A DNA stretch of 41,266 bases, from IMG/VR virus record IMGVR_UViG_2534681675_000019, one strand, 5' to 3'. Positions within the stretch are counted from its first letter, which is position 1, and each line of letters opens with the position of its first letter. The notes under the pieces were generated by a model. The model had not been told where the DNA came from, searched no databases, and saw only the letters and a list, made by a program, of their open reading frames with translations. Shown here piece after piece: positions 11,994 to 32,090 of the stretch. The DNA is from a virus. Its lineage: Duplodnaviria > Heunggongvirae > Uroviricota > Caudoviricetes. The position numbers were made by a program, and so were the translations under genes.

Positions 11994-12324
11994 ATCAGCA
12001 GCAGAGCGCAAAGCCGCTCAGAGAGCCAGACAAGCTGCATCTGGTGTGCGTAAGCTGGAAATTGTGCTTGATGCTCAGGAAATTGAAATGCTTGAGCGTA
12101 ACTGTGCTGCGCGTCGCCCCGGGCGTGCGCCTTACGAATTTTGTGAGTATATAGCGTTACTGATCCGCCAGGATGATGCACGCGTGCGCGGGCGTATAAA
12201 ATCGATCATTAGAAAACGTTGCGGTAAGTGCGGCGAGAGAGTTCCAGTTAATTCATGTCCGTGTAATGGTGACTCACAATGCTGGGTGACTAAAGGCTGG
12301 CATGAAACGAAATTAATAGTGTGA
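11983..12324 (+). CDS. Small ribbon-helix-helix-like, zinc-finger protein (candidate late regulator)
   Basis: 113 aa; RKLEIVLDAQEIEMLERN (RHH-like strand-helix) plus CGKCG...CPCNG...C cysteine cluster; last gene before the terminase-proximal palindrome and terminator. Confidence 0.4.
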   Translation: MMAKSAAERKAAQRARQAASGVRKLEIVLDAQEIEMLERNCAARRPGRAPYEFCEYIALLIRQDDARVRGRIKSIIRKRCGKCGERVPVNSCPCNGDSQCWVTKGWHETKLIV

Positions 12325-12332
12325 CATGTCAC
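12321..12332. promoter_or_regulatory. Perfect 12-bp palindrome GTGACATGTCAC, copy 1
   Basis: Overlaps the stop of the 11983 gene; about 40 bp upstream of an intrinsic terminator and 110 bp upstream of the terminase small subunit. Confidence 0.5.
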
Positions 12333-12372
12333 GAGTAGATTATGCATGATGAATTTGATGGTTTTGAATACT

Positions 12373-12399
12373 GCCGCCAACTATGGCGGCTTTATTTTG
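12373..12399 (+). terminator. Intrinsic terminator between the early region and the packaging genes
   Basis: Stem GCCGCCA/TGGCGGC with loop ACTA, followed by TTTATTTTG. Confidence 0.65.
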
Positions 12400-12441
12400 C
12401 ATGGTACTATTACCACAACGGTAACTATTACCACGGTGGTT

Positions 12442-13038
12442 ATGATGCCTGCTGAACCTAAAACCTATAAACGCAAATCAACGCAATTTAAGCCACTAAC
12501 AGCAATGCAGGAGGCTTATTGCCAGTCATACATCAAAACGCCTGAAAACCAGACTCAGGCAGCGATTAACGCAGGATTCTCCCCAAATACAGCGGCAGTT
12601 AAAGCCAGTGTCATGATGCGCGATGAACGCATTCAAAAACGGATTGCCGAGTTGATGGAGGAGCGCAACAAACGAATGCGCGTCAGTGCTGATTACGTTC
12701 TCATGCGCCTGGTGGAGATCGACCAGATGGACGTGATCGACATCCTCAACGACGATGGGAGCCTTAAGCCAATCCGCGAGTGGCCGAAAATCTGGCGCAC
12801 TACGCTTAGTGGCTTTGATCTGTCATCGACCATCATGAACATGAACGAGGATTCGATAGAGACAATCCTCAAAAAAATTAAATGGCCTGACAAGGTGAAG
12901 AACCTCGAACTGATTGGTAAGCACGTCGACGTCAACGCGTTCAAAGAACGCCTGGATGTTAATGTGAATGTGACAATTGCTGATCGCATAGCGGCAGCCA
13001 GGAAGCGACTCAAAGAACGTCAGGATGGTAATCAGTGA
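12442..13038 (+). CDS. Terminase small subunit
   Basis: Start moved to ATG 12442 (MMPAEPKTYKRK...) because the longer track ORF contains the terminator; ...QEAYCQSYIKTPENQTQAAINAGFSPNTA block typical of small terminase subunits; stop overlaps the large subunit start. Confidence 0.65.
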   Translation: MMPAEPKTYKRKSTQFKPLTAMQEAYCQSYIKTPENQTQAAINAGFSPNTAAVKASVMMRDERIQKRIAELMEERNKRMRVSADYVLMRLVEIDQMDVIDILNDDGSLKPIREWPKIWRTTLSGFDLSSTIMNMNEDSIETILKKIKWPDKVKNLELIGKHVDVNAFKERLDVNVNVTIADRIAAARKRLKERQDGNQ

Positions 13039-29148: not shown

Positions 29149-29153
29149 ATTAA

Positions 29154-31628
29154 ATGAGACAGGAATGTATACAAGCGGTCCAGCAGGCGGCGCAGCGCAC
29201 GTTAACGGCGCGAGAAATACAGAACATTGAAGACCGCATTTATCGAAATATGCGCTCCATTGCTCGTGATGACCCGATGTCGTGGCGACAACTTTCCGAA
29301 TCAGAACGGTTGTATCGTGCAGCACAATTGGCATCTGAAGAATTACAGCGAGAAGCGGCATTAAAGAAACGTCGTGTGGCCCTCACTATAGCCGCACGTC
29401 AGAGATTGGATAAATTTATCAATAGCTATCAAGGGGCTGATGGGAAACTTGGCGCTCTTAACCGTACTATTGCTTTTAATGCAGACGGTAAATCGAATTT
29501 CCTCTCTGTTGAATCCAGAACAAAAGCCACCCGTGATTATGCATTGAGTCAATTGCAGGAGGCATTCGAAGCAGTTGATCCTCGCTTTTTTGGTCTGTTT
29601 GAAGATGAAGCGGGCGTACGTGACCTGGTATATGAAATGCGGGGGCAAAATACTGGCAATGCTAAAGCAAGAAAAGGTGCTAAGGCGTGGAGAGAAGTTA
29701 CAGAGCTGCTGCGCCGCCGGTTTAATGATGCTGGTGGGGACATTGGCTATCTCGAAAACTGGGGGATCCCTCAACATCATTCTATGGAAAAGGTTGGGGC
29801 GGTATCAAAAGATAAATGGGTTAGCGATGTTATAGGTAAGCTGGATCGCAAATATTATACCCGAGCCGATGGACAACTGATGAACGATGCCGAGTTGTCT
29901 GCATTTCTTGGAGAGGCTTATAACACGATCGCTACTGGTGGGCTGAATAAGCTTACTGATACCGGAATGCGAATTTCCGGCGCACGTGCTAACCGTGGTA
30001 ATGCATCACGACAGATACATTTCAAAGATGCAGATTCCTATCTGCAATATCAGCAACTTTATGGCGATCGCTCTCTATGGGAAATCATGGTCGGTCACCT
30101 TGAAGGTATCAGTAAAGATATTGCACTGGTGGAAACATATGGCCCAAACCCCGATCATGTTTTCCGCTCTCTTCTTGATCAGGTGAAGGCAGAAACGGCA
30201 ACAGCTAACCCGAGTAAAACCGGTAAAGTCGAGCGGCTGGCGAACAACACAGAGAATCTGTACAACTTTATTTCCGGAAAGACACAGCCTGTAGCGAATC
30301 CGCACATCGCGCGATGGTCTGACAATATCCGCAACTGGCTGGTTGCCAGCAGACTCGGATCCGCGTTGCTGTCATCGTTCTCTGATCTTGGAACCATGTA
30401 TCTGTCTGCGAAGGTGACCAACCTTCCAATGAACCAGTTATTCCGCAACCAGCTTGAAGCTATGGACCCAACGAACCGTACAGAACTTGCGCGGGCGCGC
30501 CGCGCTGGTCTGGCGATGGAATCTCTACTTGGCAGCGTTAACCGCTGGGCGATGGATAATATGGGGCCGTCAGTGTCTCGTTGGGCGGCAAAGGCGGTAA
30601 TGCGTGCCAGTGGGCTTACAGCATGGTCAGATGCGCACAAGCGCGCCTATGGCGTAACCATGATGGGAAGCCTGGGAGAAGTAGTGTCACGGACACCAGA
30701 CCTTCGTAGCCTCGATGACTCTGATTTTCGTATCCTGAAAAGCAAAGGGATTACTGACACAGACTGGAGCGTATGGAAGCTGGCGCAACAGGAGGACTGG
30801 GGGAACGGTAATAATACGATGCTGACACCGGAAAGCATTATGCGTATCCCTGATTCAGCAGTTAAACATCTTGGTGAGCCTGAACGCGTGAAATTTGAGG
30901 CAATGCGTAAACTGCTCGGTGCCGTAACTGAAGAAGTTGATATGGCTGTTATTACACCGGGAGCACGTGAGCAACTGATAACCGGTTCTGGTATTCAGCG
31001 TGGAACATGGAAAGGTGAATTAACGAGAAGTGTTTTCCTGTTTAAATCGTTCCCTATCTCGGTGGTTATGCGTCACTGGTCACGCGCTATGGGTATGCCG
31101 TCTGCTGGTGGGCGTGCGGCATATATTGCGACGTTTATTGCCAGCACGACCATTCTTGGCGCTTTGTCTCAGCAACTTAACGACCTTGCGTCTGGTCGTA
31201 ATCATCGCGAGATGACAGGAGAAGATGCTGCTAAATTTTGGCTTGGTGCTCTACTGAAAGGTGGTGGTCTTGGCCTTTACGGTGACTTTTTATTGTCAGA
31301 TCACACTAGGTACGGAAGCGGCGCGCTGGCGTCGATGCTTGGCCCGGTAGCTGGTCTGGTTGATGACGTAGTGAAGATTGCTCAGGGCATACCGTTAAAT
31401 GCTGTGGAAGGGAAGAATGAGCAGACTGGTGGTGATCTGGTTAAGCTGGGGAAAGGTCTGATGCCAGGTGCGAATCTCTGGTACTTAAAGGCGGCTCTCG
31501 ATCACATGATCTTTAACCAGATGCAGGAGTATTTTTCACCAGGCTATTTGCGTAAAATGGAGCAACGTTCGAAGAAAGAGTTTAACCAGACATACTGGTG
31601 GCGACCTCAGGATGTCACTCCGCAATAA
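29154..31628 (+). CDS. Large internal virion/ejection protein
   Basis: 824 aa, GAGAGG Shine-Dalgarno; last large gene of the core block. Confidence 0.45.
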   Translation: MRQECIQAVQQAAQRTLTAREIQNIEDRIYRNMRSIARDDPMSWRQLSESERLYRAAQLASEELQREAALKKRRVALTIAARQRLDKFINSYQGADGKLGALNRTIAFNADGKSNFLSVESRTKATRDYALSQLQEAFEAVDPRFFGLFEDEAGVRDLVYEMRGQNTGNAKARKGAKAWREVTELLRRRFNDAGGDIGYLENWGIPQHHSMEKVGAVSKDKWVSDVIGKLDRKYYTRADGQLMNDAELSAFLGEAYNTIATGGLNKLTDTGMRISGARANRGNASRQIHFKDADSYLQYQQLYGDRSLWEIMVGHLEGISKDIALVETYGPNPDHVFRSLLDQVKAETATANPSKTGKVERLANNTENLYNFISGKTQPVANPHIARWSDNIRNWLVASRLGSALLSSFSDLGTMYLSAKVTNLPMNQLFRNQLEAMDPTNRTELARARRAGLAMESLLGSVNRWAMDNMGPSVSRWAAKAVMRASGLTAWSDAHKRAYGVTMMGSLGEVVSRTPDLRSLDDSDFRILKSKGITDTDWSVWKLAQQEDWGNGNNTMLTPESIMRIPDSAVKHLGEPERVKFEAMRKLLGAVTEEVDMAVITPGAREQLITGSGIQRGTWKGELTRSVFLFKSFPISVVMRHWSRAMGMPSAGGRAAYIATFIASTTILGALSQQLNDLASGRNHREMTGEDAAKFWLGALLKGGGLGLYGDFLLSDHTRYGSGALASMLGPVAGLVDDVVKIAQGIPLNAVEGKNEQTGGDLVKLGKGLMPGANLWYLKAALDHMIFNQMQEYFSPGYLRKMEQRSKKEFNQTYWWRPQDVTPQ

Positions 31629-31637
31629 GGAACAACA

Positions 31638-32051
31638 ATGAAGGAATTATTGCTGTTATCGGTATTTTTGATATCCGCTTGCTCGACATCCTATGATGTT
31701 TATGACGGTGTTGATAAGGCATATTGCGACAAGGTTAAAATGGATTTTTCTCTTGCCAAGACGGCGAAGGATAGTTGTATTGATCACTACGTCAAGACTT
31801 ATACCAAGTCAGCATCATCGGCATCTGATATTGCTGAAGGTGCTGTGTTTGAGTGTAACAAGGTGATATCCATCGCAGCGAGTTCTTCATACGATGCTGC
31901 TGTATGTGCAATGGCTGAAAGAAACGGCATGTCTGTGCAAAAAGTTAATAGCATGATAAACAGTAATGACGAAGCCAAAATAAGAACTGATATCAGCTCG
32001 GTGAAAAAAGATGCCATGAACAGAGTTGTAAAATATCAGTCATCTTTATAA
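31638..32051 (+). CDS. Lipoprotein (signal peptide with lipobox LISAC)
   Basis: 137 aa; MKELLLLSVFLISAC; AAGGAA Shine-Dalgarno; last gene of the late operon before a terminator. Confidence 0.6.
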   Translation: MKELLLLSVFLISACSTSYDVYDGVDKAYCDKVKMDFSLAKTAKDSCIDHYVKTYTKSASSASDIAEGAVFECNKVISIAASSSYDAAVCAMAERNGMSVQKVNSMINSNDEAKIRTDISSVKKDAMNRVVKYQSSL

Positions 32052-32054
32052 GTC

Positions 32055-32090
32055 GTGACATGTCACAGGCCGCTTTCGCGGCCTTTAAAT
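32055..32090 (+). terminator. GTGACATGTCAC palindrome (copy 3) plus intrinsic terminator
   Basis: Palindrome 32055-32066, then stem GGCCGC/GCGGCC with loop TTTC (32068-32083) followed by TTTAAATTT. Confidence 0.55.

Follow-up and report, generated by a model that had tools for sequence, protein, structure and literature searches.

What does a perfect 12-bp palindrome do when it stands beside a terminator at three separate places in one phage genome? The question was raised by a stretch of 41,266 nucleotides (IMG/VR record IMGVR_UViG_2534681675_000019; hereafter the window, meaning the whole stretch that was analyzed), which holds a phiV10/epsilon15-like (Uetakevirus) prophage of E. coli. The palindrome, GTGACATGTCAC, was found in exactly three copies by an exact scan of the window: palindrome A at 12321-12332, palindrome B at 14585-14596, and palindrome C at 32055-32066. 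A first-pass annotation, made from the sequence alone, had named the protein encoded at 11983-12324, described as ribbon-helix-helix (RHH)-like with a zinc finger, as a candidate binder. Our analysis points to the same protein. The palindrome is one form of a wider motif, GTGAC-N2-GTCAC, and judging from sequence comparisons the family of this protein is quite probably its binder. The 12-mers were not mentioned in any relevant paper of the literature searched.

In 100 dinucleotide-preserving shuffles, GTGACATGTCAC occurred on average 0.01 times and never three times, which bore out the earlier statement that three exact copies are far above chance. Allowing one mismatch added a single variant, GTGACATGGCAC at 17629-17640, inside a coding region (a small gene past the portal gene). 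This variant was kept in phiV10 and 38 close relatives and was not present in epsilon15. The same variant was also seen 36 bp upstream (start to start) of an exact palindrome near 14420 of contig L094, an unrelated P2-like prophage. The sequences around the three exact copies were unrelated; therefore, as had been proposed, they are not parts of a longer duplicated segment.

Each copy adjoined a GC-rich hairpin followed by a T run, at a distance of 40 nt (A), 4 nt (B), or none (C, abutting), in agreement with the first-pass annotation. Read along the strand that carries the T run, the order was the same at all three sites: stop codon, palindrome, hairpin, T run. At site A, the palindrome overlaps the TGA stop codon (12322-12324) of the 11983-12324 gene, and the hairpin (12373-12390) lies 40 nt downstream. 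The plus-strand terminator at 12373-12398, GCCGCC-aact-atGGCGGC then TTTATTTT, separates the early operon from the terminase genes; it was found by terminator scoring, and a stem_loop is annotated at the equivalent place in epsilon15. At site B, the minus strand reads stop codon (14601-14603), 4 nt, palindrome, 4 nt, and a GC-rich hairpin (14561-14580) followed by TTTGTTTT. This hairpin had been called bidirectional. It scored as a good terminator on the minus strand only, where it serves the gene at 14601-14972, and as a weak one on the plus strand. Its stem was conserved among relatives with base changes on both arms. At site C, the palindrome begins 3 nt past the stop codon of the last late gene and abuts the plus-strand terminator at 32067-32092 (hairpin 32067-32084), AGGCCGC-tttc-GCGGCCT then TTAAATTT, which was identified by terminator scoring and closes the late operon. 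In relatives, the stem of this terminator was invariant, its loop was variable, and the upstream sequence was unrelated. Palindrome A also contains GTGACA, which resembles a -35 element, and 17-18 nt downstream of it the window, epsilon15, SPN1S, and Tyrion have a -10-like hexamer. No promoter-like context was found at sites B and C, and a promoter reading with GTGACA as the -35 element applies to site A only.

The sites were conserved in relatives. Epsilon15 (positions 2142, 19517, and 39612) and SPN1S had all three exact and syntenic, and Tyrion was exact at all three with site A split over the ends of its record. In phiV10, B and C were exact and A spanned the record ends with one mismatch (GTGACATGTTAC). 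BUCT554 (Enterobacter) had the three sites, A with one mismatch. Kp4865-1 (Klebsiella) kept A and B and had a third copy inside a virion gene in place of site C. Across phages with an identity of only ~80%, the 12-mer at syntenic positions was invariant. In the alignments of sites B and C, the invariant columns were those of the palindrome and the adjacent terminator stem only, and the far side of the palindrome was unrelated. Site B of Tyrion remained with the homologous minus-strand gene despite an extra gene inserted beside terL. Exact copies numbered 131 in a further 80 IMG/VR relatives, with a few variants that differed by one base; these relatives were all at least 95% identical, were collected by a family-alignment locus search, and served for variant counts only. 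Because the palindrome has been kept at syntenic sites amid unrelated flanks, this sequence record argues that it is under selection and marks module boundaries.

In Kp4865-1 and BUCT554, it is a LexA-box promoter and a umuD-like gene, not a terminator, that come after site A. The promoter is a strong TTGACT-17-TATACT (Kp4865-1, L005 12709-12790; BUCT554, L006 8150-8258, minus strand), is overlapped by a perfect LexA box, and drives the umuD-like gene, which is inserted between the regulator and terminase genes.

The link to the protein came from a co-occurrence analysis that started from the protein. Searches by tblastn found homologues with 30-45% identity in N15 (gp46), phiKO2 (Gp45), P2-like Yersinia phages, Vibrio siphophages, and Aeromonas phages. 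GTGAC-N2-GTCAC recurred with these homologues in unrelated phage backbones: 16 of the 18 regulator-bearing genomes or loci had at least one motif, against a shuffle expectation of 0.005-0.05 each. None of the three control phages (P2, lambda, and P22) carried it. N15 and phiKO2 each had three copies, syntenic with one another, and those of phiKO2 were distinct from its annotated SopB partition sites. YenM_56.17 and Vibrio 10N.237 had one copy each. Two other Vibrio phages, K233 and PhiPS02, had three N2 copies each, together with one N3 copy in K233 and one N3 and one N1 copy in PhiPS02. Among the contigs, which were P2-like or plasmid-like, L094 had the identical palindrome and the variant described above, L095 had two tandem copies at a convergent gene junction, L096 had two copies with one of them 3 nt ahead of the regulator start codon, and L097 had three with one of them 11 nt ahead of the start of terS, the terminase small subunit gene.

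The placement relative to the regulator gene was also recurrent. The TGA stop codon of the regulator lay inside the motif in four lineages (epsilon15-like, N15/phiKO2, YenM_56.17, and Vibrio 10N.237), and in a fifth lineage the motif stood 3 nt before the regulator start codon. According to the annotations, about three quarters of the motif copies were intergenic or overlapped a stop codon, in genomes that are ~90% coding. The arms were invariant and the center varied (AT, TG, GC, AC, or AG), with an orientation not tied to the direction of transcription. No compensatory arm changes were found across the lineages compared. Invariant arms, a variable center, and the lack of compensatory changes indicated a symmetric dimer on double-stranded DNA rather than an RNA stem.

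Several other placements were recorded. One of the three copies lies within repA and is conserved between N15 (L008 33237-33248) and phiKO2 (L093 14390-14401). Another N15 copy, at 28550, is just upstream of the region controlling the antirepressor operon. One motif copy of L097 is inside a parA-like gene. Small ParA-like ATPases without an obvious ParB are encoded in K233 (L009 22952-23581), PhiPS02 (L092 11704-12333), L095 (1548-2195), and L097 (1939-2568), and gene content suggests that carriers with ParA-like genes are plasmid-type prophages. Aeromonas phage 14AhydR10PP has three copies of a 10-bp palindrome, GGTGATCACC, all within genes (L010 25963, 29348, and 29628).

The candidate binder is a protein of 113 amino acids in the epsilon15 gp49/phiV10 p55/N15 gp46 family. 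Its gene (11983-12324, plus strand; probable start ATG at 11986) is the last of the early rightward operon. The protein had no sequence match in Pfam, NCBIfam, or PDB (phmmer), and hmmsearch with a seven-sequence profile was also empty. It corresponds to phrog_536 ("transcriptional regulator"), and its family is small, with 152 clusters at 50% identity among 1.84 billion representatives. The AlphaFold model was poor on a shallow alignment and confident with 57 diverse members (predicted local distance difference test score, pLDDT, 90.6). The predicted order is a basic helix (residues 5-19), an extended segment (20-29), a helix (30-42), a second helix (52-75), and a Cys-rich, zinc-ribbon-like tail, and the model has the beta-alpha-alpha topology of an RHH fold. 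Near-invariant residues were three Cys, two Arg of the basic helix, and, within the second RHH helix, a Glu-Tyr/Leu-Ile motif. A few of the 57 members gave sub-threshold Pfam matches to RHH_5, RepB-RCR_reg, RHH_1, and TacA1. Structural matches to the model included the RHH centromere binders ParG and pCXC100 ParB, and the model could be aligned with the host protein MatP across 77 residues. The proposal of the first-pass annotation for the binder is therefore supported by the shared occurrence of motif and family by the absence of the motif from the control phages, and by the predicted RHH fold.

We place slightly on the probable side the reading that the motif is the operator of this family and acts in some way on the boundaries of transcription units. 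GTGAC-N2-GTCAC would then be a double-stranded operator for a small regulator with an RHH core, a basic N-terminal helix, and a C-terminal zinc ribbon. A dimer would straddle the site, with the basic helix and the RHH sheet reading both GTGAC arms and the two central bases left free. This contact is modeled by analogy on MatP, whose helix alpha-4 and strand beta-1 enter the major groove at its site, matS (PMC8669397). The three putative operators would stand directly 5' of the terminators that close the early operon, the minus-strand gp50-like gene, and the structural operon. Bound there, the protein may serve as a boundary element, a roadblock or insulator that reinforces the unit ends and shuts convergent and read-through transcription out of the adjoining modules. 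It may also feed back on its own operon, since one site covers its stop codon.

A boundary function was chosen for three reasons. To our knowledge, RHH proteins are repressors or DNA organizers, not antiterminators. The sites are at 3' ends and convergent junctions (B, C, and the tandem pair of L095). The regulator gene has a site over its stop codon, which is reminiscent of the operator at the lacI 3' end. If this family is the binder, a roadblock or insulator is the leading candidate role, though at less than even prospects. A loading site for read-through (antitermination) would then be a doubtful second, another role altogether is rather unlikely, and DNA bridging or organization is more unlikely still.

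Several observations weigh against a boundary operator. The pairing with terminators claimed by the first-pass annotation was real and conserved in the epsilon15-like group; it was confined to that group. In the other lineages, the motif was found 3-19 nt before start codons or in genes (N15 repA and a parA-like gene). Because placement differs outside the epsilon15-like group, a single boundary function may fail, and the role of the motif may differ between phages. Kp4865-1 has the terminator of site C but no palindrome there. At site B, the palindrome is 3' of the hairpin on the plus strand, and for this reason it cannot act alike on the two converging transcripts. The match between protein and motif was also imperfect: Aeromonas 14AhydR10PP and the P2-like locus L098 had the regulator and no motif in the available sequence, and motif-bearing phages without the protein may exist. 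Across the family, the beta-strand residues showed no pattern matching the central dinucleotide.

The main rival to the boundary operator is a read-through switch of the lambda Q kind, which we consider improbable; the other rivals are less likely. The palindrome would be a loading site where the regulator engages passing RNA polymerase, either on the DNA duplex, as lambda Q does at its binding element, or on the non-template strand, as RfaH does at ops. The early transcript would thereby be fused into a long late transcript, from terS through the structural genes and the tailspike. The regulator gene is in the position of lambda Q (last early gene, strong terminator, terminase genes), and no Q or N homologue is annotated in phiV10 or epsilon15. 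Palindromes A and C precede late-strand terminators by 40 and 0 nt, and palindrome A has the -35-like and -10-like hexamers mentioned above. Upstream of terS, near the repressor operators, the candidate promoters are weak in our reading, which also fits. On the other side, the 113-residue protein had no Q-family match, and the known roles of RHH proteins given above do not include antitermination. N15 has a Q (gp40) and P2-like carriers have Ogr besides the regulator. Site B, with its palindrome beyond the hairpin on the late-gene strand, is wrongly arranged for such a switch, B and C have no promoter-like context, and the late operons have repressor operators of their own.

These repressor operators were considered separately. 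The "repressor" protein_bind features annotated in epsilon15 are of the type ATTACC-N5-GGTAAT, and an operator scan of the window placed two overlapping matches at 12409-12443, just upstream of the terS start. The matches were dispersed (5435-5513, 6209-6225, 8516-8594, 12409-12443, 15574-15590, 32424-32440, and 38063-38079) and were located in the immunity region and where the terminase, structural, antirepressor, and lysis units begin. Since such matches stand at the starts of late units, the prophage repressor seems to act directly on the late operons. The palindrome itself was rejected as an operator of the prophage repressor, whose operators differ in sequence and are at operon starts. 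From the sequence, the units of this genome carry punctuation at their starts as well as at their ends: predicted repressor operators at the former and palindromes by the terminators at the latter.

The next rival supposes an organizer like MatP at matS. The protein would bridge three to four dispersed sites or exclude the host condensin and would not regulate individual promoters, in the service of replication of the phage chromosome, segregation of plasmid-type prophages, or packaging. We regard this as quite unlikely. Its appeal comes from the arms, which are identical to those of matS, GTGACRNYGTCAC (PMC6907758). The E. coli matS consensus is GTGACATTGTCAC (PMC8669397), and GTGACATGTCAC equals this consensus minus one central base. 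MatP is moreover an RHH protein that reads matS by a helix and the RHH strand, about three sites per genome recur across lineages, ParG and pCXC100 ParB are among the fold matches, and plasmid-type carriers with ParA-like genes are represented by N15, K233, PhiPS02, L095, and L097.

Homology to MatP was not detected. With a MatP query sequence checked against 4D8J and a MatP homologue set of near-identical E. coli sequences, hhalign covered only the RHH segment, at a probability of <1%. The candidate binder had no MatP Pfam match, does not have the architecture of the MatP family (PF06303 and PF17414; four-helix bundle, RHH, and coiled coil), and has no predicted coiled-coil tail for tetramerization. 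Integrating phages without partition genes also carry the system (none were present in the gene list of the window prophage), N15 and phiKO2 have separate SopB centromere sites of another sequence, and some genomes have a single site. A stronger version, in which the phage protein is a minimal functional analogue of MatP with a private 2-bp spacing that host MatP cannot use, and organizes or insulates the phage chromosome, is very unlikely in our estimation. If true, the protein might bridge sites or unload host MukBEF from phage DNA, competition with MatP at host matS in lytic growth would be possible, and phages would have copied chromosome-organizing logic while avoiding cross-talk.

We give still less weight to the idea that host MatP itself binds the sites despite the shorter spacer, with only an indirect tie to the phage protein. 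The half-sites are identical to those of matS. The host groups of the motif-bearing phages (Escherichia, Salmonella, Klebsiella, Enterobacter, Yersinia, and Vibrio) have MatP. For Vibrio, the protein is documented (PMC11564523). Nearly all copies, however, have an N2 spacer, whereas matS has N3 with an R-N-Y center, and the difference rotates the half-sites by ~34 degrees. No 13-bp GTGAC-R-N-Y-GTCAC site was present in the window, where all three sites were 12 bp with a 2-bp center. The motif tracked the phage protein, not the host, and P2, lambda, and P22 from the same hosts had no such sites. The prophage is at guaA, which we take to lie outside Ter, where MatP binding should be harmful. Bobay et al. 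examined 500 Escherichia and Salmonella prophages, found canonical matS in none of them, and demonstrated its statistical avoidance (PMC3603311). In our sample, a canonical N3 (R-N-Y) site occurred once each in K233 (L009 19491-19503) and PhiPS02 (L092 8818-8830) and nowhere else. Both copies have the form GGGTGAC-NNN-GTCACCC with a T run behind it and make up the stem of an intrinsic terminator.

An RNA element is just as improbable as host MatP. The transcribed palindrome would form a small hairpin by the terminator or the ribosome-binding site, either bound by the protein through its basic N-terminal segment or acting alone to stabilize 3' ends or tune termination or translation. Its proximity to terminator stems (0-4 nt at B and C) and to start codons (3-19 nt in N15, phiKO2, K233, PhiPS02, L096, and L097) would suit this, and minimum-free-energy folds put a 4-bp hairpin beside the terminator hairpin. 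That hairpin alone (4-bp stem, 4-nt loop) had -1.2 kcal/mol, no better than shuffles, and for the full 5-bp stem to close, a loop of two bases is too short. The arms lacked compensatory changes even across very distant lineages, asymmetric centers changed orientation relative to transcription (N15 site 2 is unlike sites 1 and 3), and the candidate binder has a predicted DNA-binding fold.

The weakest alternative, which the first-pass annotation had offered as a packaging or homing site and which we extend to a recombination hot spot behind mosaic joints, is hardly credible. In its favor, site A is upstream of terS, and Vibrio phages and L097 have a copy 11-19 nt ahead of the terS start codon. 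The PhiPS02 record has a copy 8 nt from its end, BLAST alignments to relatives are interrupted at site C, and mosaic flanks surround all three sites. Against it, three identical copies are unlike a unique packaging start, Tyrion is circularly permuted with arbitrary record ends, and the cos of N15, at the ends of its record, is 7 kb away from the closest copy. Neither a nuclease nor a recombinase gene adjoins the sites consistently, and any conserved 12-mer between variable modules would appear as an alignment breakpoint. A cos or pac site deduced from the phiV10 and Tyrion record ends in palindrome A was likewise discarded, phiV10 starting after the last stop codon and Tyrion being permuted. 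In PhiPS02, the copy near the record end (within L092 23372-23391, record positions 1-20) lies just upstream of terS beside an HNH endonuclease gene; if the record ends are physical, the cos of that phage group adjoins the motif.

The setting of the three sites was mapped as follows. Positions 12000-15000 shared 98% identity with phiV10 and with O157 typing phages 9 and 10, and ~82% with epsilon15, a Salmonella phage. On the right, the window ends in the host guaA-yfgH region, and the relative vB_EcoP_ZX5 was reported at a matching integration site (PMC9782041). The gene order parallels that of phiV10 and epsilon15: integrase, leftward early genes, repressor, and rightward early and replication genes, which end with the 113-residue open reading frame (ORF). 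These are followed by the terminase genes, a small minus-strand gene, and the long structural operon, to the right of which are a minus-strand antirepressor-like gene, the tailspike, and lysis genes.

The terminase small subunit gene (12442-13038, plus strand) was assigned by a PF03592 match and by the phiV10 and epsilon15 annotation, and the large subunit gene (13035-14510, plus strand) by the same annotation. The small subunit most likely starts at 12442 or 12445, not at 12346, the start of the longest ORF, which is less plausible because it would take the ORF across the terminator at 12373-12398. The epsilon15 equivalent is 12445 (or 12442), and the phiV10 annotation has a TTG at 12365. The small minus-strand gene (14601-14972), whose 3' end abuts palindrome B, belongs to the N4 gp49/Sf6 gp66 family and is gp50-like (PF13876, E 2.4e-35). 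The last gene of the structural operon (31638-32051, plus strand; 137 amino acids) appears in the ORF list and matches phrog_8691. Convergent to it is the antirepressor-like gene (32091-32471, minus strand; antirepressor matches phrog_450 and phrog_1760), in which position 32424 carries a site resembling the repressor operator. The 5' portion of this ORF also holds a perfect LexA box, CTGTATGTTTATACAG, at 32370-32385, and the true start is probably downstream of the box. By sequence, the placement of the box fits an SOS-controlled antirepressor, as in relatives.

The analysis assigns a likely DNA target to a family annotated as "hypothetical" in the databases searched, one that spans podo-, sipho-, and myovirus-type temperate phages of Enterobacterales and Vibrio, including epsilon15, phiV10, and N15. 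Operator punctuation bears on how epsilon15-type phages time late expression without a recognizable Q or N. The near-identity to matS raises the questions of whether a one-base change in spacing keeps MatP off and whether the phage protein touches host matS.

Among known systems, some could be set apart. No stable boxB-like hairpin with a boxA, as in N/nut, was found at the sites; the loop was variable and the arms had no covariation. The sites also differ from pac and cos, which are unique cut sites of terminase: there are three copies, Tyrion is permuted, and the N15 cos is far away. The SopB sites of N15 and phiKO2 are similar in being short inverted repeats scattered at intergenic places, some in repA, and Ravin et al. 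(2008) reportedly found that these dispersed centromere sites also influence late gene expression. They differ in sequence (GTGCGACCACGGTCGCAC in phiKO2, distinct from its three GTGAC-N2-GTCAC copies), in their binder (SopB), and in being restricted to plasmid prophages. The lambda Q/qut/tR' system shares the order of regulator, terminator, and late genes, a site just upstream of the terminator, and, at site A, a -35-like hexamer. In contrast to it, the phage protein is not of the Q family, B and C have no promoter context, and N15 has a Q in addition.

A closer parallel for autoregulation is LacI. Abo et al. (2000) are said to have found that LacI on the operator overlapping the 3' end of lacI acts as a roadblock, giving non-stop mRNA and tagging by transfer-messenger RNA (tmRNA). 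The putative operator here likewise overlaps the end of the regulator's coding sequence, and bound protein would halt polymerase before the stop codon as negative feedback. The regulator fold is different, and the phage arrangement, known from sequence, recurs in at least four lineages. RHH repressors of phages and plasmids (P22 Arc and Mnt, CopG, MetJ, and antitoxins such as ParD, MazE, and TacA) have the fold that is predicted for the phage protein and are small dimeric proteins on short symmetric operators; one operator by the regulator's own gene again suggests autoregulation. In contrast to their operators, which lie over promoters, the phage sites are at the 3' ends of genes and operons and are dispersed over 40 kb. 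The phage protein is also extended by a basic helix at its N terminus and by a zinc ribbon at its C terminus, and its Pfam RHH scores were sub-threshold.

The closest analogue was matS/MatP, which is taken as an analogue and not as the same family because homology to MatP was not demonstrated. Both systems have identical inverted arms (GTGAC...GTCAC), a variable center, and a few dispersed sites per replicon; the RHH of MatP has a counterpart in the phage protein, where the predicted RHH comes after a basic helix. They differ in that the phage spacer is 2 bp instead of 3, the phage sites are at gene boundaries, and the phage protein has a zinc ribbon and lacks the first three helices of the MatP bundle and the coiled-coil tail. 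Most likely, the palindrome and the 11983-12324 protein are the operator and regulator of a pair that has not been described before, although its general kind, in which an RHH protein acts on a palindromic operator, is known. As far as the sequences tell, what is unusual about this pair is the placement at operon ends and a site that is one base away from matS.

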